Positions 5,262-59,131 of a stretch of 64,000 nt of DNA are shown in pieces. Made by a program: the position numbers and the translations under genes. Position 1 is the first letter of the stretch; every line of letters begins with the position of its first letter. Where the stretch lies: the NCBI GenBank assembly GCA_934255545.1, contig CAKQOE010000003.1, positions 24,813-88,812 on the forward strand. Reading direction: 5' to 3'. The notes beneath the pieces were generated by a model. The model made no database searches. It was not told the DNA's origin and worked only from the letters and a program-made list of their open reading frames with translations. The DNA is from an uncultured Clostridia bacterium. GTDB taxonomy: Bacteria; Bacillota; Clostridia; Peptostreptococcales; Anaerovoracaceae.

Positions 5262-6062
5262 TTATTTTATAAGTATATCAACAGTATGGCGCCCTGAACC
5301 GAGAAGCTCGGGACGCTCGCATGTAGCGAGATGATAGTCGAGGAAAAGCCTGAACGTTTCCTCATCCCATGAGTTGAGCCATGGGCGCATGTAGTGGGCA
5401 GGACCGTCTGCTGATATGAGTTTTTTGCGCCTGAGCCCTGCAGCGTCTGAAAGAGCATATATATCTTCGACGCGGACAAAATCATAAAGATCCTTTTCGT
5501 CAGATATGCAGTGAAAGCTGGCGTCGAGCTTGTTGTTTTTTACGGAATCCTTTATATGCTCTTCACGGAACCCGTGGAAAAGGACGGAATATTCATTCAT
5601 ACAGTATGCGACGAGTATGTATCCGCCGGGCTTGGTGACGCGCTTTGCTTCATTTAAAGCGCGAAGCTTTTCATCAAATGTAAAAAGATGGTACATCGGC
5701 CCGAAAAGCAGCGTTATGTCAAATTCATCATCTGCCAGCTTTTTCAGGTTCAGCGCGTTTCCCTGTATGGCTTTTACATTGTCGCCTTTTGAGCGGAGTA
5801 TGCCGAGATTGTACTTTACAAGCTCTACAGCGGTCACGTCATGGCCTGCATCGGCAAGAGCAAACGAGTATCTGCCGGTGCCGGCGCCTATATCTGCTAT
5901 CTTAAGATGCTCCCGTCCTGCGATGCATTCGTTTATGTATTTCATGGATGTAGTGAATTCTACTATGCCACGGCGCTGGCCGAGGCGTTTTTCCTCACTG
6001 AATTTATTATAATATTTTTCCAGTTCTGTCATTTCAGGCATGGATATTTTATTTCCTTTCAT
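5262..6062 (-). CDS. class I SAM-dependent methyltransferase
   Basis: Motif I ADIGAGTGRYSFALADAG and post-I acidic residue (DVTAVELV). 266 aa. Confidence 0.7.
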   Translation of the reverse strand: MKGNKISMPEMTELEKYYNKFSEEKRLGQRRGIVEFTTSMKYINECIAGREHLKIADIGAGTGRYSFALADAGHDVTAVELVKYNLGILRSKGDNVKAIQGNALNLKKLADDEFDITLLFGPMYHLFTFDEKLRALNEAKRVTKPGGYILVAYCMNEYSVLFHGFREEHIKDSVKNNKLDASFHCISDEKDLYDFVRVEDIYALSDAAGLRRKKLISADGPAHYMRPWLNSWDEETFRLFLDYHLATCERPELLGSGRHTVDILIK

Positions 6063-6405
6063 TAATTGATCTTATGGATCTATTGTAATGCCCTTTGCAT
6101 ACCTTTTCAAGTTTGTAAAATTTATTTTGTTCCGGCAAAAATCCCTGTAATTTCCTCAAAAAACACGTTGACCTTCCTGTAAAGTGTAAACTTTATAATA
6201 TAAAAGTAATATTCTGATAGATCATTATGACGAGCGCCGGCCAGGCCGGCGGGCATGATGTCAGTTGATGATACTAATGAATACAACTGATGAGCAGATC
6301 AGAGATAATAGTCAATATCCGGCGCCGGGCGACGGCAGTTACTGTGAAGCTTATCTTGTTGACTCGATCGTTTATAAAATTATTTATTATTGAAGGAGTA
6401 GAATT

Positions 6406-7209
6406 ATGGGCAGTGGAATAGTAAGAGGATTTTATAAGGGCCTCGATGATATTTTTGCGCGCAATGATACTCAGGCAGCGAAAAACTATATAGAGATATG
6501 GCTCAAGACAGCAAGGGCTAACAGCAACAGAGAGCTTGAGCTTGCTACATGCAATGAGCTCGGAGGCGTATGCCGCGTGCTTGGAGACCAGGAACGCGCG
6601 AAGCAGCTTTACGAAAGAGCGCTTGAACTCATAATCGCGCTCAGACTGACAGGCACGGATAACCATGCTGTAACGCTCATAAACGCCGGGGACGTGTATA
6701 TCGTAACGGGCGACTATGAGACGGCGCTTCATTATTTCCTGCAGGCGCAGCAGATACTGACGGCTATAGATATGGACGGCGACTACCGTATGGCGGCGCT
6801 GTGCAACAATATAAGCATGGTATACCGCTATCAGGGAAAGCTTGCTGAGGCAGAGGAAGCGCTCAACAGAGCGTTTGATATCATAAAAGGCCTGCCTGAG
6901 TGCCGTCCTGAGATGGCGACGACGCTTGTAAATCTCGGCGAGCTTCAGCTCAAGCAGCAAAAATACACGATGTCTGAGGAAAGCTTTAAAAACGCGATCA
7001 TGATATATGAAAAGGAGCTCGGAGGGCGTGACCCGCATCTTCCGTCAGCGTACTCAGGCCTCGGTCATCTTTATTATGTGACCGGACGCCTCGGCGAATC
7101 AGAATCGGCATACGTGCGCGCTCTCGCGCTTGCTGAGGCGCAGTTCGGCAAAAACGACGCTTACAGGATAATAAGCAGAAATCTTGATACGGTAAGAAAA
7201 GCAGGCTGA
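6406..7209 (+). CDS. tetratricopeptide (TPR) repeat protein
   Basis: Repeated 34-aa TPR-like units (AxxxYxxAL..., NLGELQLKQQKY, GLGHLYYVTGRLGESESAYVRAL). RBS GAAGGAG upstream. Confidence 0.6.
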   Translation: MGSGIVRGFYKGLDDIFARNDTQAAKNYIEIWLKTARANSNRELELATCNELGGVCRVLGDQERAKQLYERALELIIALRLTGTDNHAVTLINAGDVYIVTGDYETALHYFLQAQQILTAIDMDGDYRMAALCNNISMVYRYQGKLAEAEEALNRAFDIIKGLPECRPEMATTLVNLGELQLKQQKYTMSEESFKNAIMIYEKELGGRDPHLPSAYSGLGHLYYVTGRLGESESAYVRALALAEAQFGKNDAYRIISRNLDTVRKAG

Positions 7210-7294
7210 TATCGCGCGCCGGCGCGCGTGATGACATAGTGATGAACATATTTATTATTGATATATGATTTAAAATTACGGAGAATTTTAAAAA

Positions 7295-8227
7295 ATGAAA
7301 GGAATGGAACTCAGCAGAAAGTATTTCGATGAATACGGTCTGCCTATGCTAAAGCAGAAATTCCCGCAGTACATCGACAAAATGGCAGCAGGCCTTGCAG
7401 GTGAAGGCTCAGAATGCCTTGGATTTGACGATGAATACTCGCAGGATCACGATTTCGGAGCAGGCTTCTGTATATGGCTGCCCGATGATCTTTACAGGAG
7501 CATCGGCGCTGAGATACAAAAAGAGTATGACAGACTTCCTGAAACATATATGGGCATAAGCCGCAATATAACGGCTATGAATCCCGGAAGGACCGGGGCT
7601 ATGTCTACGGAAGACTTTTATTTCAGGTATACCGGGCTCAGGCGCGCGCCTCAGGATAACATGGAGTGGTTCAGGATACCGGAGCATTTTCTCGCTACTG
7701 TCACGAACGGTCAGGTATTTATGGACAGGCTCGGGCAGTTTACAGATATACGGACGGCGCTGCTCGGATATTATCCGGAGGACGTACTCCGAAAGAAGCT
7801 GGCAGCCAGATGCGCTGTGATGGCGCAGGCCGGTCAGTATAATTATCCCCGCTGCATAAAGCGCGGTGAGCGCTCGGCGGCGTACCTTGCATGCGCTGAG
7901 TTTATAAAAGCGGCGCTGTCTGCGGTCTATCTTCTCAACCGCAGGTATATGCCGTTTTACAAGTGGTCGTTTCGCGGTACAGACGATCTGCCTTTGCTGA
8001 AAAACGCAGCTTCTGCTCTCAGAAAACTCTCTCTCGCTGACGATGCCGGAGCACATGATACAGCAAAGCAGGATCTTATAGAAAGCATCTGCATAGATGT
8101 CATACGCGAAATGAACAGACAGCACCTTACATATGTTACTGAAACGTTTATGGAGGCGCAGGCGCTCGACCTGATGAAGGGCGTGAGTGATACACGAATT
8201 TCATCGATGCATATACTTGCAGATTAA
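7295..8227 (+). CDS. conserved hypothetical protein
   Basis: 310 aa ORF with good RBS context (GGAGAAT...ATG). Coding-like composition. No recognisable catalytic motif. Confidence 0.4.
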   Translation: MKGMELSRKYFDEYGLPMLKQKFPQYIDKMAAGLAGEGSECLGFDDEYSQDHDFGAGFCIWLPDDLYRSIGAEIQKEYDRLPETYMGISRNITAMNPGRTGAMSTEDFYFRYTGLRRAPQDNMEWFRIPEHFLATVTNGQVFMDRLGQFTDIRTALLGYYPEDVLRKKLAARCAVMAQAGQYNYPRCIKRGERSAAYLACAEFIKAALSAVYLLNRRYMPFYKWSFRGTDDLPLLKNAASALRKLSLADDAGAHDTAKQDLIESICIDVIREMNRQHLTYVTETFMEAQALDLMKGVSDTRISSMHILAD

Positions 8228-8252
8228 AATAAATATTGATAATCAATGAATA

Positions 8253-8280
8253 CAGCCGCGCAGGCGCGGAGCGTTTATTG
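8253..8280 (+). terminator. intrinsic terminator after hypothetical gene
   Basis: Hairpin ccgcgcaggcgcgg followed by tttatt. Confidence 0.5.
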
Positions 8281-8407
8281 GTCATTGATGTGAAAATTCG
8301 ATTGCTTTTATGAAGGTTACAATATATTATATAACAGGTAAGATTTTATTGTGTTTTACTTTGTTTATAATAAAAATATGTGACTTTCTGTTGGAAAGGA
8401 GTAGTTT

Positions 8408-8788
8408 ATGTCGGCTAAAACGGCATACATACTGCTTGTTATCTCTATACTTTTTGAACAGATAGGAACAGGCTTTCTTGAGGCTACTAAAGCGTTTACG
8501 TTTTTAAAGCCTACGATCATTGTGATCGTTGCATACGTTATATCATATATACTCTTCTCAAAGCTTCTTGAGAAGATAAACCTGAGCGTGGCGTACGCGA
8601 CATGGACGGCTTTAGGCACGATAAGTGCGGCGCTTATAGGACTTATAGCATATAAGCAGGTCATATCCGTAACAGGATGGATAGCTATATTTATCATGTG
8701 CGCCGGTATAGTCATACTTAATCTTTTCGGTACGCCGAAGGAAGAAAAAGGCGGTGACGGAAAAAAGAACGGGGGTGATGCTGAATGA
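8408..8788 (+). CDS. small multidrug resistance (SMR) family transporter subunit
   Basis: 126 aa, 4 TM. Conserved membrane-embedded Glu in TM1 (ILFEQIGTGFLEATK) typical of EmrE/SugE/Gdx. Overlaps the next SMR gene by 4 nt (paired heterodimeric SMR arrangement). Confidence 0.7.
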   Translation: MSAKTAYILLVISILFEQIGTGFLEATKAFTFLKPTIIVIVAYVISYILFSKLLEKINLSVAYATWTALGTISAALIGLIAYKQVISVTGWIAIFIMCAGIVILNLFGTPKEEKGGDGKKNGGDAE

Positions 8789-9111
8789 GTATCGTAACAG
8801 CATATTTCCTTCTCGGAGTTTCAGTCATCACTGAGATCATTGCGACATCGACGCTTCCGGCTACAAAGGGATTTACAAAGCTCAAACCGAGCCTTGTATC
8901 TGTGATCGGATATGTAGTATGTTTTTACTGCATGGGCATAGCGCTGACGAAGCTCAACCTGGGTATCGCTTATGGCACATGGGGCGCTATCGGTACGGCG
9001 GTGACGCCGATCATAGGCTATATAGCTTACAAACAGAAGACAACAAAAGCAGGCTGGTTCGGAGTGCTTCTTACTGTTATAGGCGTATTTATACTTAACA
9101 TGTACGGCTGA
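8785..9111 (+). CDS. small multidrug resistance (SMR) family transporter subunit (second of pair)
   Basis: 108 aa, 4 TM. TM1 motif VITEIIATSTLPATKGF. Confidence 0.7.
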   Translation: MSIVTAYFLLGVSVITEIIATSTLPATKGFTKLKPSLVSVIGYVVCFYCMGIALTKLNLGIAYGTWGAIGTAVTPIIGYIAYKQKTTKAGWFGVLLTVIGVFILNMYG

Positions 9112-9312
9112 TGCTCCGCGCTTGCGCAGCAATATCCGACGGCAGCATCCGGTGGCAGCGTTCAGACGGTAAACAGATAAAACACATGAAAATATTGGTA
9201 TTCATTTTGGATTTGATTTGATTTCAGATGCTTGGAAGCCGCGGTTTTCGGCAGGCATTTTCGAAAATGACCGCTGTCCGGCGCCTGAAAGAGCGTTTCA
9301 GGAGGTTTCTTT

Positions 9313-9966
9313 ATGAGAGAAGACATAAAAATAAAGGCCCGACCGGAAGATGAGATCATAAACGCAGTTATAGAGCGCGAGTGGTCCATGTTTGATAAAG
9401 TTCAGAATATCGGAGGCTGCAGGGCGTCATGCCAGGATGACGAATGGACGTTTTATGCCAACAGATACAGCCAGTTTTCCGCGCTGAGCCAGGAAACTGT
9501 ATTCAGCTATTACAATGACCTGACGCGCGCCATAGAGGACGGCCGTAATGTGATAACAGAAAAATACGCTTATATGATGGAGTTTACGGATCCGGAGTAT
9601 TATCACCGCGAGCTTGAGGCTTCACTTCCTGCCGTACCTGCTGATAATATGGAGCTCGTGCAGCAGATCGTTGAAATACAGCTCAGGCAGGAGAAGGCTT
9701 TCAGAGAGAGATTTCCGTATTTTGCCGGACGAGGCAGAGTCCTTGACAATGACGAAAGCTCATTCACTTCGTTTAAAGTATATAGCATCGGAGAGCTTAA
9801 GACGTATTCATACGATACGTTGAAGCTTTTTTTACGTGACATAAAGCTTACTGACAGAGAGGCGGAACTCAGTCTTTCATACAGGATACATCTGAACACC
9901 GCCCGTTTTTACGGCTACAAAACACTTGATGATGCAGAAAATGCTTTAAGAGAAGGGCGGAGGTAA
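9313..9966 (+). CDS. conserved hypothetical protein
   Basis: 217 aa ORF with RBS GGAGG. No motif recognised. Confidence 0.35.
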   Translation: MREDIKIKARPEDEIINAVIEREWSMFDKVQNIGGCRASCQDDEWTFYANRYSQFSALSQETVFSYYNDLTRAIEDGRNVITEKYAYMMEFTDPEYYHRELEASLPAVPADNMELVQQIVEIQLRQEKAFRERFPYFAGRGRVLDNDESSFTSFKVYSIGELKTYSYDTLKLFLRDIKLTDREAELSLSYRIHLNTARFYGYKTLDDAENALREGRR

Positions 9967-9972
9967 TGTCAA

Positions 9973-10833
9973 ATGGAGAGAGAGATCAGAGAGAACAAGG
10001 ACAGTAGACAGCTTTATTCCATAGGCCAGGTAAGCAAGCTGTGCAACATATCGCAGAAGACATTGAGATATTATGACAAGATAGGTCTGATAAAGCCGGA
10101 TAAAGTTGATGACAGCAACAACTACAGATACTACAGCCGCGAGACGCTGCTTTTCGTGCCTGTCATAAAATACTACAAGCAGATGGGTTTCAAGCTTGAG
10201 GAGATGCAGGAGCTGCTGGGCAGCTCGTCATACAGCAGGCATATTCGTAAATTCAACGAAAAGATATCTGAGATACAGCAGCAGATGAGTGAGCTGCGCG
10301 TTGCGAGCAGATCTATAAAAGACTGGAGAGACCTTATACTTGAAGCGCAGACAGTGCTTGAAAATAAAGTGACTGAGGTGTCTGTAAGGTATCTGGACAA
10401 CCTGTCGGGATGCTATATGGAGCAGGATTTCAACGGAAATTATCCCGAGACTATCATAAATATCGACTGGACTAATTACCTCGAGCAGATAGACATCTCC
10501 ATAACAGGCGCTGTCATGATGTACTGCGGCGACTTTCGCAGCAAGATGCTCCGCAAGAACGTCCGCATAAAGGTATTTCAGGAGGTAGCGACAGCATCTG
10601 AGGATTATCCGGCGTTTTCTGTAGGAGGCACGATGGTCGCGTCATGCTATCATATAGGAAATTACGGCACTATAAACGACACATATAAAAAGATAATGAA
10701 CTGGGCAGAAACGAACGGTTACGAATGCTCCGAATTTTCGGTTGAACGCTTCGTGACTGATTTCTGGACCACTAAAAATATAGATGAATTCATCACGGAA
10801 GTGATCGTAGGCATCAAGAGAAAGGAAGTTTAG
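9973..10833 (+). CDS. MerR-family transcriptional regulator with C-terminal GyrI-like effector-binding domain (BmrR/TipA architecture)
   Basis: N-terminal MerR HTH (YSIGQVSKLCNISQKTLRYYDKIGLIKP), coiled-coil linker, roughly 150 aa C-terminal domain. Immediately upstream of the pduU/pduV-like pair. Confidence 0.65.
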   Translation: MEREIRENKDSRQLYSIGQVSKLCNISQKTLRYYDKIGLIKPDKVDDSNNYRYYSRETLLFVPVIKYYKQMGFKLEEMQELLGSSSYSRHIRKFNEKISEIQQQMSELRVASRSIKDWRDLILEAQTVLENKVTEVSVRYLDNLSGCYMEQDFNGNYPETIINIDWTNYLEQIDISITGAVMMYCGDFRSKMLRKNVRIKVFQEVATASEDYPAFSVGGTMVASCYHIGNYGTINDTYKKIMNWAETNGYECSEFSVERFVTDFWTTKNIDEFITEVIVGIKRKEV

Positions 10834-10840
10834 ATTAAAA

Positions 10841-11227
10841 ATGGCAGATATAAATGATCTGTTTCCACATGATGAAGACGGAAGGTTAAGGATCATACAG
10901 GAGCACGTTCCGGGCAAGCAGATAACGCTTGCGCATATAATCGGAAGCCCGCGCCCTATAGTTTACAAGAAGCTCGGACTTAATCCGGATATCGATTACG
11001 GTTCGTCAGCGATAGGGATCATCACTGTATCTCCTCCTGAATCAGCAGTAATAGCAAGCGATATATCAGTAAAATCAGGCGACGTTTACCTGGGCTTTGT
11101 AGACCGTTTCAGCGGCTCGCTCATCATAACAGGCAGGCTTTCAGAAGTAGAAACTGCTATAAATGAAATAGTAACGTACTTCAGAGACGACCTCGGATAT
11201 GCGTGCTGCGACGTCACAAGAAGATAA
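10841..11227 (+). CDS. pduU: EutS/PduU-type (permuted) BMC shell protein, satellite copy
   Basis: 128 aa. IIQEHVPGKQITLAHIIGSP...AIGIITVSP...GFVDRFSGSLIITG aligns with the PduU/EutS permuted BMC domain. Confidence 0.7.
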   Translation: MADINDLFPHDEDGRLRIIQEHVPGKQITLAHIIGSPRPIVYKKLGLNPDIDYGSSAIGIITVSPPESAVIASDISVKSGDVYLGFVDRFSGSLIITGRLSEVETAINEIVTYFRDDLGYACCDVTRR

Positions 11228-11241
11228 AGGCGGCAGTATAA

Positions 11242-11718
11242 ATGAGAAAGATCATACTCATCGGCCGCAGCGAGACAGGCAAGACGACGCTGACTCAGGC
11301 GCTCAAGGGTGAAAAGATCCAATACCACAAGACGCAGTACGTAAATAATTTCGATGTTATAATAGACACTCCGGGTGAGTATGCGGAAACTGCCGACCTT
11401 GGCGGAGCACTGGCTATATATTCATATGAAGCCGATGTAGTCGGACTGCTTCTCAGCGCTATAGAGCCTTACTCGCTCTATCCGCCGTGCATATGCGCCA
11501 TGGTAAACCGTGAGGTCATAGGCATAGTCACAAAGATAGACAGATCGGACGCTGTTCCGGAACGTTCAGCCGAATGGCTGAGGCTTGCAGGCTGCGAAAA
11601 GATATTTTACGTCAGCTCATACACAGGCGAGGGTATCCCGGAGCTTCTTGAATATCTCAAGGAAGACGGTGACGTGCTCCCGTGGGAGGAAGCTAAAAGA
11701 GCAGATAATGAGCTTTAG
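11242..11718 (+). CDS. pduV: EutP/PduV-family small GTPase, satellite copy
   Basis: 158 aa. P-loop GRSETGKTTL, DTPGEY. Same family as ORF 19938..20402. Confidence 0.7.
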   Translation: MRKIILIGRSETGKTTLTQALKGEKIQYHKTQYVNNFDVIIDTPGEYAETADLGGALAIYSYEADVVGLLLSAIEPYSLYPPCICAMVNREVIGIVTKIDRSDAVPERSAEWLRLAGCEKIFYVSSYTGEGIPELLEYLKEDGDVLPWEEAKRADNEL

Positions 11719-11865
11719 GAATGTAATGCAGTAAATGCATAAAAGAAAGCGCGCGTCGCCGCGCGAACACGGATGCGCGTGAAGATACTGATTTACAAAG
11801 CACACGGGCTATAGACTGTATACACTTATATCTGTATTACATATAAGCAAAATATTATATTATAC

Positions 11866-11906
11866 GGTAAAGAAAGATTCCCCTTGGGGAATCTTTCTTT
11901 ACTTTG
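11866..11906 (+). terminator. intrinsic terminator after pduU/pduV satellite
   Basis: Perfect 15-bp hairpin aaagaaagattcccc-ttgg-ggaatctttcttt followed by a T-rich stretch. Confidence 0.7.
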
Positions 11907-12037
11907 TATGATAAAAAACTAACAATATCCCATCCAAATTGACTGCACCATATTTTTGTATTGTCAAGCAAAAGTTTGTTTTAAACATGTTTTTTAATTC
12001 AAATAAGCTTGTGATTTCAATGCATTGAGTATATAAC

Positions 12038-12075
12038 GGGAGCACCGCTTATAATGCCGGTGCTCCTGTTTTTTG
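12038..12075 (+). terminator. intrinsic terminator (of a short unannotated transcript)
   Basis: gggagcaccg-cttataatg-ccggtgctcc followed by tgtttttt. Confidence 0.6.
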
Positions 12076-12096
12076 ATATCTGAAAATTTTGAAAAA

Positions 12097-12135
12097 AAAT
12101 ATTGACCTTCCACCTTACTGTATGGAGTATATTCA
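12097..12135 (+). promoter_or_regulatory. candidate sigma-A promoter of the BMC operon
   Basis: TTGACC at 12103, then AT-rich -10-like elements (tatgga/gtatat) 17-19 nt downstream. Followed by a roughly 220 nt leader before the 12354 start. Confidence 0.35.
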
Positions 12136-12353
12136 ACAATAGGGAGAGGAAGTATGGGAATACTGTGCCGACAGGGCTTTTAAAGCTGTTGCAAAAGTAA
12201 CATTATATGGTAATGTTAAACGGCAATCATACATATTATATGTACTTAGTTATGCAGCGGCTGTAAAAACTCTGACGGATGTATTCGGTGTTTCTGTTAT
12301 GAATACTCCCGAAAGTTTATCACAATAATTTATATTTAAAGGAGAAGTTTTTA

Positions 12354-13427
12354 ATGAACAATTCTGCACAGGCTTTAGCCGCTAAACAGGCGCTGGCTAA
12401 AGGATTCAGAAAAAAGGGTATTGCGATCGCAGTCCTGTCAGGTATGCTTTACGGAATCTACACTGCGTTCATGACTCAGGGTATGGCTTCAGGCAAGTGG
12501 GCTGCATGGTACGGCGGAGCAGCATCAGCATTCGCTGTTATCTACACTCTCAGTGCTGTAGGCGCTGCTACAAACGACCTTTTCTCAGCTGTATGGACTC
12601 TTATCTATTCAGCTATCAAGGGTAAGCTTGGTGACTTCGGCAGATCACTCAAGTCTAAGCCGGGTGTGATCCTTATCATATCTGCTATCATCGGTGGTCC
12701 TATCGCTTCAACTTGCTATGTATTAGGTCTCCAGCTCGGCGGATCTATCATCATTCCTATCGCTGCATTAAACGCAGCTATCGGCGCTATCATCGGTAAG
12801 TTCGTATTTAAGCAGCCTCTTACAGGCAAGATGATCCTCGGTATCATCATCTGCTTCGCAGCTGCAGTACTTATCGGAAGCACATCATTCGCTGACGGCG
12901 TAGACCTCAGCGGCGGCGCTGTATTCGGCCTTATCGCTGCATTCTGCGCAGCTCTCGGCTGGGGTATCGAAGGCGCGGTTGCAGGCTTCGGTACATCAAT
13001 GATCGACCCTGAGATCGGTATCACTATCAGACAGGTGACATCAGGCTTATCAAACGCTATAATCCTCGTTCCGCTCCTCTCACTCATAGGCGGTGACGGA
13101 ATCGGTTCTGGTTTCTCATTCGTAGCTCAGGCTCTCTCTGATGGTCCTTCAGCTTGGATGTTCATCATCTCAGGTCTTGCAGCAGCAGCTTCATTCGGCT
13201 TCTGGTACAAGGGCAACAGTATGTGCGGTGCAGCTCTCGGTATGGCTTGCAACGGCATGTACGCTTTCTGGGGTCCACTCTTCTGCTTCCTTATCATCGG
13301 TCTTGGCTTTGGTGTAGACGGTTACGCTATTCCATGGCAGGGCTGGGTAGGCGCAGCTATCATGGTATTCGGTATCTTCGTACTGGCAATTGCTCAGGGT
13401 AAGGCAGCAGCAGAGGAGGCAAAATAA
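12354..13427 (+). CDS. 10-TM DMT-superfamily permease (RhaT/GlcU-like), putative substrate importer of the BMC locus
   Basis: 357 aa, Gly/Ala-rich hydrophobic protein with two 5-TM halves (GIAIAVLSGMLYGIYTAF ... GGAVFGLIAAFCAALGWG). First gene of the BMC gene string. RBS AAAGGAGAAG. Confidence 0.45.
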   Translation: MNNSAQALAAKQALAKGFRKKGIAIAVLSGMLYGIYTAFMTQGMASGKWAAWYGGAASAFAVIYTLSAVGAATNDLFSAVWTLIYSAIKGKLGDFGRSLKSKPGVILIISAIIGGPIASTCYVLGLQLGGSIIIPIAALNAAIGAIIGKFVFKQPLTGKMILGIIICFAAAVLIGSTSFADGVDLSGGAVFGLIAAFCAALGWGIEGAVAGFGTSMIDPEIGITIRQVTSGLSNAIILVPLLSLIGGDGIGSGFSFVAQALSDGPSAWMFIISGLAAAASFGFWYKGNSMCGAALGMACNGMYAFWGPLFCFLIIGLGFGVDGYAIPWQGWVGAAIMVFGIFVLAIAQGKAAAEEAK

Positions 13428-13429
13428 TA

Positions 13430-13696
13430 ATGAAACCATTAAACTTTGCAATTTTAAAATATTTTACAACGGTTAAAGAGGCTTGCGCTGATGACGTTAT
13501 CGAAGCGCTCAAGCCACAGTACGGTAACTTCAAGGCCCTCAAGAAGAAGGCAGTTATCGAAGCTCTTATGACAGCAGAAGCAAATGGCCTTATTGCTGAA
13601 TCAAGATTTGAGCTTAAGAACGACGGCGAGCTTGTAGTTTACTACAACGCTCCAGCTGAATGTGCAGCTACTATCAACAGTTATATAAAGGACTAA
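13430..13696 (+). CDS. small hypothetical protein (possible winged-helix fold)
   Basis: 88 aa ORF tightly coupled (2 nt) to the permease gene. No motif recognised. Confidence 0.35.
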   Translation: MKPLNFAILKYFTTVKEACADDVIEALKPQYGNFKALKKKAVIEALMTAEANGLIAESRFELKNDGELVVYYNAPAECAATINSYIKD

Positions 13697-13800
13697 TGAT
13701 TTAAAGGCGAAAGCCTGTATAGACCCATCCGCGGGGCGGATGCAGCGACTGCGCGCTGATATTCATGCCTCGCGGATATTTCAGAAAGGAGACAGACTTA

Positions 13801-14100
13801 ATGAGATACGAAGCAGATCAGGCACTCGGTATGCTTGAAACTGTAGGTATGGTTCCTGCTCTTGAGGCAGCTGACAAGATGCTCAAGGCTGCAGATGTAG
13901 AACTTATCTCCTACGAAAATGTCGGTTCAACTCTCGTTACTATATTCATAAAGGGAGATGTAGCCGCAGTAAAGGCAGCTATCAGCGCGGGCGCAGAAGC
14001 TGCTGCAGCGATCGGTAAGCTCACAGCTACTGACGTAATTCCACGCCCTATCAGACCAATCGGTGATATCGTTTCTATTTACGATATCGACGAAATGTAA
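13801..14100 (+). CDS. BMC-H shell protein (PduA/EutM-like)
   Basis: Canonical BMC domain (ALGMLETVGMVPALEAADKMLKAADVELI...GDVAAVKAAISAG). Start moved to ATG 13801, which has a good RBS (AGGAGA). The track ORF starts at 13765. Confidence 0.8.
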   Translation: MRYEADQALGMLETVGMVPALEAADKMLKAADVELISYENVGSTLVTIFIKGDVAAVKAAISAGAEAAAAIGKLTATDVIPRPIRPIGDIVSIYDIDEM

Positions 14101-15908: not shown

Positions 15909-18503
15909 TTGGACATTCGTGAATTTTCAAACCGCATCGCGGAAGCAACAAAAGATATGTCTGAACAGGAACGCGCATCTCTCATGAAGATGTTCGAATC
16001 AGTATCTGATCACGTTTCTGCTGTTAAGCCTGAGGACGTGGCTCACCACGACACTCACGAAGGCAAGATGACATATTATTCATCTATAGCTGCAGCTACT
16101 ACAGAAGTTGACGAAGACGGAGTACCAAAGGGTCCTACAGAAAGACTCGTAAAGCTTAAGGAAAACTTCCTCGAGCAGGTACCTTCTATTACAACATACA
16201 GAGCTCGCGCAGTAACTAAGATCACTAGGGAAAACCCTGGTATGCCTAAGATCCTTCTTAGAGCAAAGTGCTTCAGATACTGCTGCGAAACAGCTCCACT
16301 CGTTATCCAGGACAACGAACTGATCGTTGGTGCTCCAAACGGCGCTCCAAGAGCAGGTGCATTCTCTCCTGATATCGCATGGAAGTGGATGGTAGATGAG
16401 ATCGATACTATCGGTACAAGACCTCAGGACCCATTCTACATTTCAGAAGAAGATAAGAAGATCATGAGAGAAGAGCTCTTCCCATTCTGGGAAGGCAAGT
16501 CAGTTGACGAATACTGTGAAACTCAGTACAGAGAAGCAGGCGTATGGGAACTTTCAGGCGAATCTTTCGTTTCTGACTGCTCATACCACGCAGTAAACGG
16601 CGGCGGCGACTCAAACCCTGGTTATGACGTTATCCTCATGAAGAAGGGTATGATCGACATCCAGAACGAAGCTAAGGAACATCTCGCAAAGCTCGACTAC
16701 GAGAATCCTGAAGACATGGATAAGATCTATTTCTATAAATCAGTAATCGAAACTACAGAGGGTGTTATGGCTTATGCAAGACGTATGTCTGAGTATGCTG
16801 AACAGCTCGCTGCCAAGGAAGCTGATCCTAAGAGAAAGGCTGAGCTCCTCCAGATCGCAAAGGTAAATGCAAAGGTTCCTGCGCACAAGCCTGAAACATT
16901 CTGGGAAGCTATCCAGGCAGTATGGACTATCGAATCACTCCTCCCTGTAGAAGAAAACCAGACAGGTATGTCTATCGGCCGTGTTGACCAGTATATGTAC
17001 CCATTCTACAAGCATGATATCGAATCAGGTCACATGAACAACTTCCAGGCATTCGAGCTCGCAGGCTGCATGCTCATCAAGATGTCTGAAATGATGTGGA
17101 TCACAAGTGAAGGCGGTTCTAAGTTCTTCGCCGGTTATCAGCCATTCGTTAACATGTGCGTAGGCGGTGTTACAAGAGCAGGTCAGGATGCTACAAACGA
17201 ACTTACTTACCTCCTCATGGATGCAGTAAGACACGTAAAGATCTATCAGCCATCACTCGCGTGCCGTATCCACAACAAGTCACCACAGAAATATCTCAAG
17301 AAGATCGTTGACGTTGTACGTTCAGGCATGGGCTTCCCTGCTTGCCACTTCGATGATACTCATATCAAGATGATGCTCGCTAAGGGCGTTTCTATCGAAG
17401 ACGCGAGAGACTACTGCCTCATGGGCTGCGTAGAACCACAGAAGTCAGGAAGACTTTACCAGTGGACTTCTACAGCGTACACTCAGTGGCCTATCTGCAT
17501 CGAGCTCGTTCTCAACCATGGTGTTCCACTGTGGTACGGTAAGCAGGTATGCCCTGACTTCGGCGATATCGAACAGTACAAGACTTATGAAGAATTTGAT
17601 CACGCTGTAAAGGAAATGATCAAGTACGTTACTAAGTGGACTGACGTTGCTACTGTAATTTCACAGAGAGTACACAGAGACCTCGCTCCAAAGCCACTCA
17701 TGTCTATCATGTATGAAGGCTGCATGGAAAAGGGTAAGGACGTATCTGCAGGCGGCGCTATGTACAACTTCGGACCTGGTGTTGTATGGTCTGGTCTTGC
17801 TACTTACGCTGACTCAATGGCAGCTATCAAAAAGCTCGTATTTGACGACAAGAAATATACATTAACTCAGCTCAACGAAGCACTCAAGGCTGACTTCGAG
17901 GGTTATCCTCAGGTTAAGGCTGACTGCCTCGCAGCTCCTAAGTATGGTAACGATGATGACTACGCTGACCTCATCGCAGCTGATATCATCAACTTCACTG
18001 AAATGGAACACAGAAAGTTCAAGACTCTCTACTCTGTACTGAGCCACGGTACACTTTCTATTTCAAACAACACTCCGTTTGGTCAGCTCCTCGGCGCTTC
18101 AGCAAACGGCCGTGATGCATGGACTCCGCTCTCAGACGGTATCTCACCAACTCAGGGTGCTGACTACAAGGGCCCTACAGCTATCATCAAGTCTGTAGCT
18201 AAGCTCTCAAACGACAACATGAACATCGGTATGGTACACAACTTCAAGCTCATGGCTGGTCTCCTTGACACACCTGAAGGCGAGAATGGTATCATCACTC
18301 TGCTGAGAACAGCATGCGCATTCGGAAACGGAGAAATGCAGTTCAACTATATCGACAACAACACTCTGATCGAAGCTCAGAAGCATCCTGAACAGTACAA
18401 GGACCTCGTAGTTCGTGTAGCAGGATACAGCGCATTCTTCACAGAACTCTGCAAGGATGTACAGGATGAGATCATCAGCAGAACTATGTTAAACCATTTC
18501 TAA
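15909..18503 (+). CDS. cutC: choline trimethylamine-lyase (glycyl radical enzyme CutC)
   Basis: 864 aa, TTG start with RBS AGAGGTG. Gly radical motif RVAGYSAFF (Gly839). Cys loop GC507VE509P. Tyr226, Asp234 (GGGD), Phe413, Thr520 and Tyr524 match the published D. alaskensis CutC choline-binding residues at a constant +18 offset. About 60-aa N-terminal extension. Confidence 0.75.
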
Positions 18504-19569: not shown

Positions 19570-19923
19570 ATGGGCGAATTGCACGAAAAAGTCACAGACC
19601 GCATCATACAGGAATCGGTACCTGGAAAACAGGTAACTATAGCTCACGTTATAGCCTCACCTACGCATGATATATATGAAAGGCTGGGGATCGATGATAA
19701 GGGCGCTATCGGCATACTTACGATATCACCTTATGAAGTAGCGATAATAGCCGCAGATATTGCTACAAAAGCCGCTGATGTAGAGATAGGCTTCCTTGAC
19801 AGATTCACAGGATCCGTTGTAATATCAGGCGATGTACAGAGTGTTGAAACGGCGCTTCACGAAGTTACCGAAAAGCTCTGCAACCTGCTTGATTTCACTA
19901 CGGTACCGGTAACAAGGACCTGA
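19570..19923 (+). CDS. pduU: EutS/PduU-type BMC shell protein
   Basis: 117 aa. [21 protein letters not shown]...AIGILTISP...[14 protein letters not shown], close to the PduU consensus. Confidence 0.8.
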
Positions 19924-19937
19924 GAAGGAAGCGCATA

Positions 19938-20402
19938 ATGATCGTTGGCCCGAGAAACTGCGGTAAAACTTCTCTGGCTAACAGACTTAACAGATACACC
20001 GGTCCGCTGAGGAAAACTCAGGACACGATCTATGGAAAGTACACTATAGATGTTCCAAGCGCATTTCTTGAAAATACAGATATGTACAAGCATCTCATAG
20101 CACTTTCACAGGATGCCTGGTGCGCCCTTATAATGGTAAACCAGGAAAGGATAGAACATGTTTATTCTCACGCGTTCGCCAACGCGCTGCTGTGCCCGTC
20201 TTTCGGAGTTATCGGAAAGTCGGACCTGGCACCTGAAAACGAAGCAGTATGCGTTAAGCAGCTGCAGACGGCGGGAGCGCGCGAACCGTATTTCAGAGTA
20301 AACCTGTTAGCTGAAAACGGAACGGATGAACTAGAAGGATTCCTCCGGGAATTCTACAATGAAAGGAACAGGGGCTTAGATGAGATTCATAACAGAAAAT
20401 GA
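19938..20402 (+). CDS. pduV: EutP/PduV-family GTPase
   Basis: 154 aa. P-loop GPRNCGKTSL. Confidence 0.7.
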   Translation: MIVGPRNCGKTSLANRLNRYTGPLRKTQDTIYGKYTIDVPSAFLENTDMYKHLIALSQDAWCALIMVNQERIEHVYSHAFANALLCPSFGVIGKSDLAPENEAVCVKQLQTAGAREPYFRVNLLAENGTDELEGFLREFYNERNRGLDEIHNRK

Positions 20403-24201: not shown

Positions 24202-24888
24202 ATGAAAAAGCTTATTTGCACTAAAGAAGTGGAAGAGGCTGAAAAGCAGGGCCAGAAAGTCATCTATATCGATGAAAACACACTGGTAACACCTGCTGCG
24301 AAGGATGCGGCTATAAACGCAGGCATCGAATTCGTATGCGGACAGGCTCCTGAAGCTTGCGCAGCAGCACCTGCTGCTCCTGCTGAACCTGCTCCTGCAG
24401 CTCAGCCAGCTGTAACACCTGCTGCTCCTGTACAGGAGAGCGCTATAGACAGCGAACTTATTTACAAGGCTATCATGTCTCTGGCTGAAAGAGGACTTCT
24501 CGGAAATCTTGCAAACGTTATACAGCAGGATGTTCCATACGTTTCTGAAGGAGACGGACAGGGCTTCGTAAAGCTCGTAAGAAGCAGCACTGCAAAGTGG
24601 GAACCACTTGATACAGGCAACCCGGCAGATAAGGTTTTCTACAATGAGCTTATCAACTCAGACGACGGCTCAGCTATGAACGCAGGCTTCATGACTATTG
24701 AAAACTGCTCATTCCCATGGGACGTAGCATGCCAGGAGATCTACTATGTAGTAGAAGGTACTCTTACTGTTGAAAAGGACGGCAGAGTATTCACAGGTCA
24801 CCCTGGTGACTGCCTCTTCTTCCAGAACGGCGCTCATCTGAAGTTCGGTTCACCTGATAAGGTCAAAGTATTCTACGCAACTCACTAA
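24202..24888 (+). CDS. eutQ: EutQ-like cupin protein
   Basis: 228 aa. N-terminal EutQ-type segment, Ala/Pro linker, C-terminal cupin (GFMTIENCSFPWDVACQEIYYVVEGTLTV...GHPGDCLFF). Confidence 0.7.
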   Translation: MKKLICTKEVEEAEKQGQKVIYIDENTLVTPAAKDAAINAGIEFVCGQAPEACAAAPAAPAEPAPAAQPAVTPAAPVQESAIDSELIYKAIMSLAERGLLGNLANVIQQDVPYVSEGDGQGFVKLVRSSTAKWEPLDTGNPADKVFYNELINSDDGSAMNAGFMTIENCSFPWDVACQEIYYVVEGTLTVEKDGRVFTGHPGDCLFFQNGAHLKFGSPDKVKVFYATH

Positions 24889-27395: not shown

Positions 27396-28055
27396 ATGGC
27401 AGAACCAAATTATGAAGCAATTATGCAGATACTTCTGGACGCTGTAAAGAACGGCGTTAAGCCTGCAGCATGCGAAGCAGCAGCTGAGGATACAGTTCCT
27501 GTAGGTATCTCAAACAGACATATACACCTCTCAGAGAGCGATCTTAAAGCTCTCTTCGGAGATGGTTATGAACTGACAAACATAAAGGATCTTTCACAGC
27601 CTGGACAGTTCGCATGCAAGGAAGTAGTTACTATCTGCGGTCCTAAGGGCGCTATCGAAAAGGTAAGAGTACTCGGACCTTTAAGAAGCAAGACTCAGGT
27701 AGAAGTTCTCCACAGCGACCGCTTCAAGCTCGGAGTTACTGCTCCTGCAAGACTCTCAGGCGACCTCGCAGGTACTCCCGGAGTTACAGTGATCGGTCCT
27801 AAGGGTTCGGTTCAGTTAAAAGAAGGTCTGATCGTTGCACAGAGACATGTACACATGACATGCCAGGACGCTGAAAGATTCGGCGTACATGACGGCCAGA
27901 TCGTAAGCCTCAAGGTAGAAGGTCCAAGAGGCGGCGTTTTATCAAACGTTATAATAAGAGCAAATGACAAGTCAAAGCTTGACTGTCATCTCGATACTGA
28001 TGAAGCTAATGCAATGGATATAGGCTCATCAACTAAGGTAACTATCATAAAGTAG
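27396..28055 (+). CDS. pduL: phosphate propanoyl/acetyl-transferase PduL
   Basis: Two PduL repeats (GISNRHIHLSESD, IVAQRHVHMTCQD). N-terminal amphipathic helix NYEAIMQILLDAVKNG is consistent with an encapsulation peptide. Confidence 0.8.
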   Translation: MAEPNYEAIMQILLDAVKNGVKPAACEAAAEDTVPVGISNRHIHLSESDLKALFGDGYELTNIKDLSQPGQFACKEVVTICGPKGAIEKVRVLGPLRSKTQVEVLHSDRFKLGVTAPARLSGDLAGTPGVTVIGPKGSVQLKEGLIVAQRHVHMTCQDAERFGVHDGQIVSLKVEGPRGGVLSNVIIRANDKSKLDCHLDTDEANAMDIGSSTKVTIIK

Positions 28056-55602: not shown

Positions 55603-57966
55603 ATGCTGAATGAAAGACTCACTCGTATGAGAGAAAAATACTTTAATACTATCCCGGCTATAACGGCCGAGCGTCTGGTGCTCGCTACAGAAGCATATCA
55701 GAAATTTGCAGGCGATGTTGCGCCGGTATTCCGCGCAAAGATAGCAAAGTACGTTATGGAGCGCATGACTACGCTGATCATGGAAGATGAGCTTATAGTA
55801 GGTACGCCTACAAATACATACCGCGGAGCAAATCTGTTTCCTGAGTACACGTCAAGCTCATGGCTCATATCAGACATCGATGAGTTTCCGGTAAGAAAGA
55901 CAGACCCTTACCGCATCAGCCCGGAGGACCGCGAAGCTATACTTGAAACACTCAAGTACTGGGAAGGCAAGGCAATAGAGGACATGGCGCCTGAGATCCT
56001 GCCTGATTACATAGAAAACGCGCGTCAGAAGGACCTTATCTCAGTAGGCTGCAGAAACGGCGTTTCAGGAGAAACGACACCTAATCATAAAAAATTCCTC
56101 GAGATCGGCCTTAAGGGATTCATGAAGGAATGCCGTGAAAATATTGACCGCGTAAAGGGCGGTACAAAAGAAAAACAGGAAAAGGTGGATTTCTGGAGAG
56201 CATGCATAATATTCTGCGAGGGCCTTATAACATACGCTCACAGAATGGCAGACGAAGCAGAACGCCAGGCGTCTGAGTGTGAAGATCCAAAGAGAAAGCA
56301 GGAGCTGCTGACTATAGCTGAAAACTGCAGAGTAGTTCCTGAAAACCCGCCGCAGAACTTCTGGCAGGCGCTTCAGATGATCTGGTTCATACAGGTAGCG
56401 TTCCATATAGAAGCACCGACTACAGCATGCGGCTTCGGAAGATTCGACCAGTATATGTATCCTGCATTCAAGGCTGATCTCGACAGCGGCGCCATAAACG
56501 ACGACAGCGCGCTCGAACTTCTTGAATGCTTCTACCTCAAGTGCTGCGAAGTATATGAAGTCCGCGACAAGTGGTACGCGAAATCATTCGCAGGCTACCC
56601 GATGTGGGAAATACTCGTAGTAGGCGGCCAGACACCTGACGGCAAGGACGCAAGTAATGAGCTCTCATACCTCTGCCTCGATGCAGCCGCAGATCTGCAG
56701 ACTACACAGCCTGTACTCGCAGTAAGAGTATTTGAGGGCACACCTGAGCCTCTTATCAGAAAAGGCGCTGAAATGATCCAGCAGGGCATGGCTAATCCGG
56801 GATTCTTTAACGACGAGGCAGCTATAAAGATGACGCTCGGTAAGGGCTGCACTATGGAGGAAGCGAGAGACTGGACTATAGTAGGCTGCATACAGCCGGG
56901 ACCGGGAGGCGGCACTACAGACGGTTCGCCTGACGCAGGCTACGTAAACGCCCCTAAGGTACTTGAGCTTGTTCTCCATAACGGTATCGACCCGGCGACG
57001 GGTGAAAGGCTTGGACTTGAAACAGGAGATCCGAGAGATTTCAAGACATTTGAAGATCTCGTAGAAGCTCTTAAAAAGCAGCTTGTTTACTGCTACAGGA
57101 TGATAAAGGACGGATACGACCTTATGGTCCCTTACCACAGCGTAAACTACCCTGTAATATTCGCTTCCATGGCTATGCAGGGCTGCGTTGAGTCAGGAAA
57201 GTCAGTCCAGGAGGGCGGCGCGAAGTACACTACTGCAGGGATGTTCATAACAGGTGCAGCAAACCTCGGCGACTCTCTGACAGCTATAGAAGACCTTGTA
57301 TACAACAAGAAAAAGATAACGATGGACGAGCTCATAAAAGCGCTCGACAAGAATTTCGAAGGCGAAGAACGTATGCGCCAGATGCTCATAAACGAGCCTC
57401 CTAAGTACGGAAACGACGACCCGCACGCAGACGCGATGGTACGCGACCTCCTGAAGTTCTGCGCGGACACAGTTCAGGAATGGGAAGACTCAAGAGGCGG
57501 ACATTACTCATTCAGTAATCTGTCACAGACGGTAAATATCTCACACGGCGAAGTGTGCGGAGCTACACCTGACGGACGTCTTGCAGGCGAGCCTTACTGT
57601 GACAATGCTTCGCCGACTATGGGACGTGACCTCAACGGCCCTACAGCTACGGTAAAATCAGTAGCTGCCATAGACCAGAGCAACTTCCATGACGGCGCGC
57701 TCTTCAATCTGAGATTCGACCCTAAGGGCATCCAGGGCGAAAAGGGCATTCAGATAATCGAGGGAGTTATAAAGACATACTTCGAAAACGGCGGCGAACA
57801 CATACAGATAAATGTCGTTGACGATGAAACGCTCAAAAAGGCGCAGCAGAAGCCTGAAGACTACAGAGGCCTTATGGTCCGTGTAGCCGGTTACATGGCT
57901 TACTTCACAGAACTCGACAAGGCGGCGCAGGACACTATCATATACAGAACTGCGCACCTTAAGTAA
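55603..57966 (+). CDS. glycyl radical enzyme of unknown specificity (787 aa) with non-canonical Cys loop
   Basis: Gly radical motif VRVAGYMAYFTEL (Gly763). Cys loop VGC429IQ431PGPGG has Gln where eliminase-type GREs have Glu. The N-terminus resembles GDH/HypD-type GREs. Confidence 0.8.
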   Translation: MLNERLTRMREKYFNTIPAITAERLVLATEAYQKFAGDVAPVFRAKIAKYVMERMTTLIMEDELIVGTPTNTYRGANLFPEYTSSSWLISDIDEFPVRKTDPYRISPEDREAILETLKYWEGKAIEDMAPEILPDYIENARQKDLISVGCRNGVSGETTPNHKKFLEIGLKGFMKECRENIDRVKGGTKEKQEKVDFWRACIIFCEGLITYAHRMADEAERQASECEDPKRKQELLTIAENCRVVPENPPQNFWQALQMIWFIQVAFHIEAPTTACGFGRFDQYMYPAFKADLDSGAINDDSALELLECFYLKCCEVYEVRDKWYAKSFAGYPMWEILVVGGQTPDGKDASNELSYLCLDAAADLQTTQPVLAVRVFEGTPEPLIRKGAEMIQQGMANPGFFNDEAAIKMTLGKGCTMEEARDWTIVGCIQPGPGGGTTDGSPDAGYVNAPKVLELVLHNGIDPATGERLGLETGDPRDFKTFEDLVEALKKQLVYCYRMIKDGYDLMVPYHSVNYPVIFASMAMQGCVESGKSVQEGGAKYTTAGMFITGAANLGDSLTAIEDLVYNKKKITMDELIKALDKNFEGEERMRQMLINEPPKYGNDDPHADAMVRDLLKFCADTVQEWEDSRGGHYSFSNLSQTVNISHGEVCGATPDGRLAGEPYCDNASPTMGRDLNGPTATVKSVAAIDQSNFHDGALFNLRFDPKGIQGEKGIQIIEGVIKTYFENGGEHIQINVVDDETLKKAQQKPEDYRGLMVRVAGYMAYFTELDKAAQDTIIYRTAHLK

Positions 57967-58901: not shown

Positions 58902-59131
58902 GCGCGCATTGTATGTGCGCAGCGCGGCCTCAGCCGCAAGATGCATGTGCGGTGACGCACACGAAGATAAAAACTTGTTATTGAAATATTTTACATAAAT
59001 CAAATTTGATGGACATTCAGGCGGTGACGAATTTTTTACCGATTAATACTGTATTTTTATACTAAATCCGTCTGTTTTTACCATATATAAAGTTATAATC
59101 CGTTATATTTATCTAAGGAAGGAAAGATATT

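Follow-up and report, generated by a model that had tools for sequence, protein, structure and literature searches.

A second PduU/PduV-type gene pair in the probable operon of a choline-family regulator, upstream of a cut microcompartment locus in an uncultured Clostridia bacterium

Here we analysed a stretch of 64,000 nucleotides (the window) of contig CAKQOE010000003.1 from an uncultured Clostridia bacterium, in which the gene for a MerR-family regulator with a GyrI-like domain is followed by a shell-protein gene of the EutS/PduU type (PduU') and by a gene for a P-loop protein of the EutP/PduV type (PduV'). The three genes lie upstream of a choline-utilization (cut) bacterial microcompartment (BMC) operon that has a PduU/PduV pair of its own. 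The best overall explanation, which we regard as probable, is that the regulator responds to choline and that PduU'/PduV' is an ancient, portable module docked in its accessory operon. Sequence comparison indicates that the pair is old and conserved and that it joined the regulator operon in one gut clostridial group. Because docked, stand-alone and divergent arrangements were all found, the pair is a portable two-gene module, and it recurs with accessory genes of glycyl radical enzyme microcompartment 1 (GRM1) loci.

Results

The regulator belongs to the family of a choline-dependent activator

Pfam searches identified MerR_1/MerR helix-turn-helix, MerR-DNA-bind and GyrI-like domains in the regulator. 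In NCBIfam, it matched NF053782, 'choline utilization transcriptional activator', over profile positions 3-277 of 278 (E = 4.6e-94, 315 bits), and the runner-up MerR family scored 57 bits. An AlphaFold2 model of the regulator (predicted local distance difference test score, pLDDT, 87) was matched by Foldseek to full-length BmrR, including the acetylcholine complex 3Q5S, with template modelling (TM) scores of 0.68-0.72; together with the Pfam domains, this confirmed the BmrR architecture proposed in an earlier, sequence-only reading of this DNA. The best solved-structure matches were the multidrug sensors EcmrR and BmrR, and the C-terminal domain resembled the cation-binding, GyrI-like EcmrR-CTD and CTR107. 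Glu258 was invariant in a 20-sequence alignment and aligned with the conserved glutamate of EcmrR and CTR107; we infer that this residue could pair with the quaternary ammonium group of choline.

The regulator was assigned to the functional family of Dde_3291 of Desulfovibrio alaskensis, which was shown experimentally to be a choline-dependent activator (Kuehl, 2014; PMC4045070), and the window protein would likewise be expected to bind choline. Choline induction was also shown in D. desulfuricans (PMC4453576), and nearly every type I cut cluster has been described as carrying the regulator family (Martinez-del Campo, 2015). The choline-sensing role of the family is thus established knowledge and not new. 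The sequence-only reading had put forward a choline-responsive activator as hypothesis only; the function was right (NF053782; Dde_3291, PMC4045070), but it was more than a hypothesis, being already known.

The window regulator shares several traits with Dde_3291 (D. alaskensis G20) and Ddes_1352 (D. desulfuricans): a MerR-family gene adjoining the cut/BMC operon, an apparent TTCCCC..GGGGAA dyad between -35 and -10 of the cut promoter, a regulator gene in an operon with accessory genes (also described for Dde_3291, PMC4045070), and a second site ahead of that operon. It differs in that the window dyads are degenerate on the right side, and the experiments were made in Desulfovibrio, not in Bacillota. 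The operon partners also differ, being TPR, DUF4037, an SMR (small multidrug resistance) pair, DUF4125, PduU' and PduV' in the window and Dde_3288 and Dde_3289 in G20. Dde_3288 is a drug/metabolite transporter (DMT) permease and Dde_3289 a small PadR-like protein (PMC12363597), so the candidate assignment of Dde_3288-3290 as TPR, DUF4037 and DUF4125 was rejected for at least two of the three. BmrR of Bacillus subtilis and EcmrR of E. coli have the same winged helix-turn-helix, coiled coil and GyrI-like domain, and their promoters have over-long spacers as well; however, they are only ~21% identical to the regulator, control efflux pumps and answer many lipophilic cations, whereas the window family is dedicated to a catabolic organelle.

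The regulator gene is linked to CutC and to a MerR-type cut promoter

Starting from a 20-homologue alignment, we collected 80 genome loci with 10-kb flanks, onto which the window proteins were mapped by tblastn. The linkage of a MerR/GyrI gene to other cut loci, raised as a check by the sequence-only reading, was borne out: CutC lay downstream of the regulator in 60 of the 63 loci that have at least 8 kb of downstream sequence. Among the three exceptions, one has its cut genes upstream (L076) and two have no CutC in ~10 kb downstream (L009 and L012). In L012 (~11960..12000), a metagenome-assembled genome, the cut promoter runs into the 3' part of EutQ, and everything from the membrane-protein gene to BMC-T, with CutC among it, is skipped; a large deletion or an assembly join would account for this.

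At 220 nt ahead of the cut operon, we found a MerR-type promoter whose spacer is 20 bp long (P2, Table 1), close to position 12100, where the sequence-only reading had proposed to look for one. In most of the 80 loci, the first gene of the cut operon is preceded by the element TTGAC(N)-TTCCCC-(tata)-GGGAAA-gg..-TATAAT, with a spacer of 20 bp or, in some, 19 bp. An over-long spacer that contains a TTCCCC..GGGAAA dyad is a MerR promoter signature, and the dyad is the one published for Desulfovibrio, where the palindromic motif CnTTCCCCnnnnGGGGAAnG is centred between -35 and -10 of the cut promoter (PMC4045070). Relatives show the dyad clearly, as in TTCCCCTAAGGGGAA; P2 of the window has a good left half, TTCCAC, and a degenerate right half.

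To score such sites, a 32-position weight matrix was built from 49 cut-promoter sites. Two sites reached at least 10 bits in the 64-kb window against 0.05 expected, namely P2 and a candidate promoter (P1) 207 nt ahead of the TPR gene, and no site of at least 22 bits was found in 200 shuffles of the window. In 1.38 Mb of loci, 91 sites reached at least 18 bits; all of them were on the coding strand and ahead of the membrane-protein gene TM357, a BMC-H gene (BMCH1 or BMCH3), MerR or TPR. A core-operator matrix with fixed spacing gave no match in the window, as the dyad centre spacing varies, and a regular expression was used instead.

A counterpart of P1 was present ahead of the TPR gene in L001. 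In addition, five loci (L003, L005, L010, L071 and L077) have a strong MerR-type site immediately ahead of the regulator gene, and in L003 and L005 this site heads a MerR-PduU'-PduV' unit. Judged from the promoter sequences, certain lineages seem to express the regulator operon constitutively and others to have it self-activated, and the window would belong to the second group if P1 is functional. Aminipila-like loci (L019, L022, L023, L028 and L029) have two MerR-type promoters, one just after the regulator, heading ~3.4 kb of genes, and the other before the membrane-protein gene, which suggests a larger regulon in that genus.

PduU' and PduV' form clades separate from the main-operon copies

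The open reading frames (ORFs) of the regulator, PduU' and PduV' were all intact, with the domains that the sequence-only reading had claimed, and the separate PduU/PduV pair of the main operon was also found where expected (Table 1). PduU' was recognised by the BMC domain PF00936 with 41.7 bits (cutoff 24.5). Over residues 12-127, it aligned with the solved structures of C. difficile EutS (4AXI, E = 6e-32), Salmonella PduU (3CGI, 1.8e-28) and E. coli EutS (3I96, 8e-27). With the EutS subfamily model NF012012 (cutoff 123 bits), PduU' scored 99, below the cutoff, which fits a divergent clade; main PduU scored 123.4. PduV' matched PF10662 (PduV-EutP) with 169 bits against a cutoff of 21, and its motifs GRSETGKT, DTPGE and TKID (G1, G3 and G4) are conserved in its clade. 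It fell marginally below the cutoff of TIGR02528 (136.2 against 138.35) and scored 40.8 bits with NF012011, 'acetate kinase EutP', against a cutoff of 258. No solved EutP/PduV structure was found for comparison with PduV', the search returning a weak match to the FeoB G domain only.

PduU' is 50% and PduV' 26% identical to the main copy. For clade comparisons, sequences were extracted from all loci. The PduU' clade was monophyletic, with 78% identity within, 45% to main GRM1 PduU and 46-49% to four solved PduU/EutS proteins; main PduU was closer to the solved proteins (53-61%) than PduU' was. The PduV' clade was likewise monophyletic, with 78.5% identity within and 27% to main PduV, whose own clade shows 61% identity within. 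Main PduV of the window has a shortened N-terminus, starting MIVGP, and has DVPS where the family has DxPG. Upstream in-frame codons (..RRKRI) fit the orthologue N-terminus KKRIMVIGP, and there is no start codon there (19920..19950). Main PduV may be a weakened copy, and there is a weak hint in these sequence features that PduV' could be the more active of the two in the window organism.

The pair occurs in docked, stand-alone and divergent arrangements

Of 75 genome loci, 15 had the pair docked immediately after the regulator gene, and docked copies were also seen in L084, L085, L091 and L093. The lineages of the 15 loci comprise Hominibacterium, Zhenpiania, Lentihominibacter, Anaerovorax odorimutans, Allocopromorpha and further metagenome-assembled genomes (MAGs); the docked loci are Anaerovoracaceae-like, and the two named genera that were checked are Anaerovoracaceae. 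The pair was absent from the docked position in Clostridium, Aminipila, Peptococcaceae, Enterocloster and Lacrimispora. Both ORFs were intact in all 24 loci examined, and pseudogenisation of the accessory genes in relatives, which the sequence-only reading had named as a possible refutation, was thus not seen. Between loci whose regulators share 51-56% identity, the pair is 72-82% identical, and sequence conservation points to strong purifying selection on it. In a homology search with PduV', the best 120 listed clusters were all at least 75% identical.

Stand-alone two-gene loci were found in Aminipila luticellarii, C. aminobutyricum, a Clostridium MAG and two metagenome contigs (L081, L083, L086, L090 and L092), with unrelated neighbours. 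The stand-alone upstream regions that were read (L081, L083 and L086) contained ordinary sigma-70 promoters, and no choline operator TTCC..GGAA was found upstream of these three pairs or in the divergent L088. A. luticellarii and C. aminobutyricum also have cut loci. In a third arrangement, the pair is divergent from DUF4037-DUF4125 in a glycyl radical enzyme (GRE)/BMC locus in which a PocR kinase and an AraC regulator take the place of the MerR regulator. A small hairpin, CAGCGTTGCTGTAA, was seen in the 5' untranslated region before the shell gene in L081 (~9565..9580) and L083 (~9530..9545) and was not seen in L086.

The pair lies between the regulator gene and an operator-like terminator

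The intergenic gaps are 6 nt between DUF4125 and MerR, 7 nt between MerR and PduU' and 14 nt between PduU' and PduV', with a ribosome-binding site at each. Because gaps of 6-14 nt leave no room for a promoter, the three genes form the tail of a longer operon and not a unit of their own. The most likely transcription unit has eight genes: TPR, DUF4037, the two SMR genes, DUF4125, the regulator, PduU' and PduV'. The sequence-only reading had placed the pair under the regulator and sought an operator upstream of 10841; with only 7 nt available there, this did not hold, and the window pair shares the transcript of the regulator gene and is not a separate target of the regulator. Its '1 kb upstream' for the distance to the main operon was loose: PduV' ends 384 bp from the cut promoter, 636 bp from the first operon gene (12354) and 2 kb from the first main shell gene, which starts at 13765.

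The two terminators said to separate the three genes from the main operon were recovered as strong hairpins with U-runs (T1 and T2, Table 1). The core of T1, TTCCCC-TT-GGGGAA, is made of the operator half-sites and forms a perfect dyad copy 230 bp upstream of the P2 dyad. In 33 of 79 loci, against 1.1% expected, the regulator unit is followed by an equivalent TTCCC..GGGAA palindrome that begins no further than 75 nt from the final gene; examples fall within L002-L048. The distance is larger in the window, L001 and L052, where ~160 nt separate the PduV' stop from the palindrome. In loci with a docked pair, the palindrome comes after PduV', and in loci without one it comes after MerR, which shows that the pair entered between regulator gene and terminator. 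In several Clostridium loci, the palindrome also occurs after the 88-aa gene, ahead of a second promoter. The conservation of the stem sequence across families suggests a second regulator site, and the regulator may also bind the terminator palindrome, 140-280 bp upstream of the promoter operator. In several genera, the word CGGGAGCA, or the stem GGGAGCAC/GTGCTCCC, is found again in the DNA that separates the palindrome from the cut promoter; CGGGAGCA-type elements were noted at 12037..12070 in the window and in the intergenic regions of L001, L003, L004, L012, L017, L021 and L030.

Table 1. Positions of the genes, promoters and terminators discussed, in window coordinates.
Feature	Coordinates	Strand	Details
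P1, candidate MerR-type promoter of the regulator operon	6168..6199	+	TTGACC-TTCCTGTAAAGTGTAAACTT-TATAAT (N20); weight matrix 25.5 bits; TTCC left half-site
TPR-repeat protein, regulator operon gene 1	6406..7209	+	TPR_12, E = 2.6e-44
DUF4037 protein	7295..8227	+	PF13228, E = 4e-38
SMR transporter gene pair	8408..8788 and 8785..9111	+	PF00893, E ~1e-19 to 6e-20 each
DUF4125 protein	9313..9966	+	PF13526, E = 2.4e-59
MerR + GyrI-like regulator gene	9973..10833	+	286 aa; intact ORF
PduU' gene (EutS/PduU-type BMC-H)	10841..11227	+	128 aa; intact ORF; 5-residue loop insertion
PduV' gene (EutP/PduV)	11242..11718	+	158 aa; intact ORF
T1, terminator hairpin	11866..11903		perfect 17+17 palindrome GTAAAGAAAGATTCCCC-TT-GGGGAATCTTTCTTTAC; for 11860..11912, free energy (dG) -28.3 kcal/mol, z -8.1; U-run
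T2, intrinsic terminator	12035..12076	+	GGGAGCACCG..CGGTGCTCC, then TTTTTT; for 12030..12082, dG -23.5, z -5.7
P2, MerR-type promoter of the cut operon	12102..12133	+	TTGACC-TTCCACCTTACTGTATGGAG-TATATT, 20-bp spacer; weight matrix 22.8 bits
Membrane protein (357 aa, polytopic) and 88-aa protein, cut operon genes 1-2	12354..13696	+	
CutC	15909..18503		glycyl radical enzyme; TIGR04394 1674 bits, cutoff 1050; CutD next
Main-operon PduU	19570..19923	+	
Main-operon PduV	19938..20402	+	
EutQ	24202..24888		cut operon
PduL	27396..28055		cut pathway

Accessory genes and the main cut operon

In 24 of 66 loci, DUF4037-DUF4125 immediately preceded the regulator gene, and the TPR gene was found upstream of DUF4037 in 19 of 66, including 13 of 13 testable loci with a docked pair; all testable docked loci carry TPR-DUF4037-DUF4125. 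The set of TPR, DUF4037 and DUF4125, often with a flavin mononucleotide (FMN) reductase, precedes the cut regulator in many Bacillota loci (L002-L035, L084, L088, L091 and L093). A pair of overlapping SMR genes between DUF4037 and DUF4125 was present in the window and L001 only. Quaternary ammonium or guanidinium cations are typical substrates of SMR proteins. An 'MDR efflux transporter' (multidrug resistance) is a known GRM1 accessory gene (PMC4207490). The DUF4037/DUF4125 pair has been reported, unexplained, in a limonene-degradation operon (PMC12583861), and we found no function for either family in the literature. The proteins of L001 (CAVGTL010000002.1) are 84-100% identical to those of the window, and its record is labelled Succinivibrio sp.; as its gene content and relatives are Clostridia, this label is doubtful and probably reflects a binning error. 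An Rfam scan of 5900..14000 (E up to 1) returned a chance snoRNA match only, which argues against a riboswitch in the 220-nt leader or ahead of the SMR genes.

Domain searches identified a complete type I cut/GRM1 operon downstream of the three genes. It begins with genes for a 357-aa membrane protein and an 88-aa protein, followed by two BMC-H genes, an aldehyde dehydrogenase (AldDH), CutC (5 kb downstream of the regulator gene) and CutD, and continues with main PduU, PduV, EutJ, a BMC-domain gene, EutN, PduS, BMC-T, EutQ, a second AldDH, PduL and a BMC-H gene. The pair of 357-aa membrane protein and 88-aa protein is conserved in nearly all loci, with tandem duplicates in several Clostridium loci (e.g. 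L044, L047 and L062), and neither protein matched a family in Pfam or NCBIfam. The two are likely a candidate choline uptake or transporter unit. Its counterparts might be Ddes_1354, a 'predicted transporter' induced by choline (PMC4453576), and Dde_3288, the DMT permease (PMC12363597). Elsewhere in the window, a second glycyl radical enzyme (787 aa) and its activase (55603..60634) lie beside an amino-acid permease and have no shell genes; they are a separate, non-compartmentalised system.

Discussion

In the mechanism that we propose, a regulator dimer would bind the TTCC..GGAA dyad inside the 20-bp spacer of P2, and choline in the GyrI-like pocket would cause -35 and -10 to be realigned, as in the standard MerR mechanism. 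P1 probably lets the regulator raise expression of its own operon, and the docked pair would be made together with the regulator and not with the bulk shell. In Salmonella, PduU and PduV interact in reciprocal two-hybrid assays, and docking placed PduV on the protruding PduU beta-barrel outside the shell (PMC4315436); PduV binds the shell and has been linked to BMC movement (PMC9132943). By analogy, PduU' would be a minor permuted shell tile whose cytosolic face is the docking site of PduV'. The two would make up a second tile-GTPase pair, orthogonal to the main pair, and would supply the choline organelle with another point of attachment or positioning that is expressed independently.

The gene order is shared: in Salmonella PduU-PduV and in eutS-eutP, a permuted BMC-H gene is likewise followed at once by a gene for a PF10662 P-loop protein. 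PduU' differs from these in belonging to a separate clade, with ~48% identity to PduU/EutS, a loop insertion and a longer N-terminus. The window pair also lies outside the structural operon, in the regulator operon, and elsewhere the module stands alone. BMC satellite loci (Axen, 2014; Sutter, 2021; e.g. CcmK3/K4) provide a further parallel, as in both cases a shell gene is expressed apart from the main operon. Satellite-like loci made of BMC-H and PduV/EutP are common (PMC4207490), and PduV/EutP was next to the shell gene in 57% of satellite-like loci (Axen, 2014). The window pair differs in being inside a regulator operon, 2 kb from the first main shell gene with two genes between. Under the 'distal' definition of Sutter (2021), the window pair is not distal, whereas its orthologues in L081, L083, L086, L090 and L092 are. 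The pair fits the known class of shell-plus-PduV accessory modules, and current understanding is not overturned.

Other explanations of the regulator and of the origin of the pair were considered. The regulator could be a BmrR-like multidrug sensor of the adjacent SMR efflux pair, unrelated to choline, as EcmrR and BmrR are its best solved-structure matches and two SMR genes lie in its own operon. This is very improbable: the SMR pair has that position in the window and L001 only, the homologues adjoin CutC in 60 of 63 loci with the operator within the cut promoter, and both the NF053782 match and the genetic evidence on Dde_3291 (PMC4045070) point to choline. The sequence-only reading had treated the pair as a duplication of exactly the two accessory components of the main locus. 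A recent duplication of main PduU/PduV for extra dosage would account for the same two families in the same gene order, yet it is ruled out, to the point of being hardly conceivable, by the identities of 50% and 26% and the separate monophyletic clades. In addition, main PduU is closer to the four solved PduU/EutS proteins than to PduU', and the PduU'/PduV' clade has independent loci in other genera.

With regard to function, the pair might serve another or any microcompartment (eut, pdu or another GRM) and be a mobile cassette that landed by the cut regulator, with no specific role in choline use. In favour of this are the orthologues, at least 75% identical, in isolated two-gene loci with unrelated neighbours, the sigma-70 promoters without a TTCC..GGAA operator in the three upstream regions read, and the presence of the pair in just 15 of 75 cut-regulator loci. 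We nevertheless consider such a generic role unlikely. The pair sits beside GRM1 accessory genes in three architectures, one of them without the MerR regulator, and its precise insertion between regulator gene and terminator has been kept intact across several genera. In L003 and L005, moreover, MerR-PduU'-PduV' has its own strong MerR-type promoter, and the two named species with stand-alone pairs also have cut loci. Alternatively, PduV' might be an EutP-type acetate kinase that makes ATP from the acetyl phosphate of PduL, with PduU' as its docking tile or conduit. Salmonella EutP and EutQ have been reported as acetate kinases, as cited in PMC5821096, the 78.5% identity within the PduV' clade is as expected for an enzyme, and the cut pathway yields acetyl phosphate through PduL. 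The low NF012011 score, the EutQ already present in the operon and the GTPase-type G1, G3 and G4 motifs kept in PduV' speak against this possibility, to which we give little weight.

Several observations weigh against the combination of choline regulator and docked module that we prefer. The 315 bits of the regulator are below the NF053782 equivalog cutoff of 450, and orthology to Dde_3291 therefore rests on context and motif and not on a curated score limit. Both P2 and P1 have a dyad with a degenerate right half-site (that of P1 is weak), which makes operator strength in the window organism uncertain. Autoregulation through P1 is likewise uncertain, as an ordinary promoter with an 18-bp spacer stands before TPR in L002, L004, L006, L007 and L008, and so in the closest named relatives. 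Weak hairpins after DUF4037 (8256..8269) and before DUF4125 (9284..9302), together with the 200-bp gap at 9111..9313, could split the regulator operon. Because stand-alone copies lack the choline operator, the pair need not be confined to the choline organelle. Finally, the report of EutP as an acetate kinase (Moore and Escalante-Semerena, 2016, as cited in PMC5821096) would give PduV' a different role.

A more far-reaching version of the preferred explanation is that the pair is an autonomous, previously unclassified plug-in tile-GTPase module that moves between genomic sites and is wired to the choline regulator in some lineages, and that the T1 palindrome is a real second binding site; we regard this as speculative and hold it with low confidence. 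If the plug-in proposal were true, a tile-GTPase would already be there when the bulk shell is made and would not depend on it, for instance for seeding or positioning the organelle. If the T1 palindrome were bound, termination of the regulator unit would be linked to control of the cut promoter 140-280 bp downstream.

The conversion of choline to trimethylamine (TMA) by gut bacteria is medically relevant, and knowledge of the cut switch could guide efforts to lower TMA. The window adds comparative support from Bacillota for the mechanism shown in Desulfovibrio, with a promoter and operator consensus that is well defined across ~70 loci. Anaerovoracaceae-like gut bacteria would have a choline organelle with a second tile/GTPase unit, which is expressed separately and is better conserved than the regulator, and PduU'/PduV' may provide a tractable handle on the still unsettled role of PduV-type proteins.

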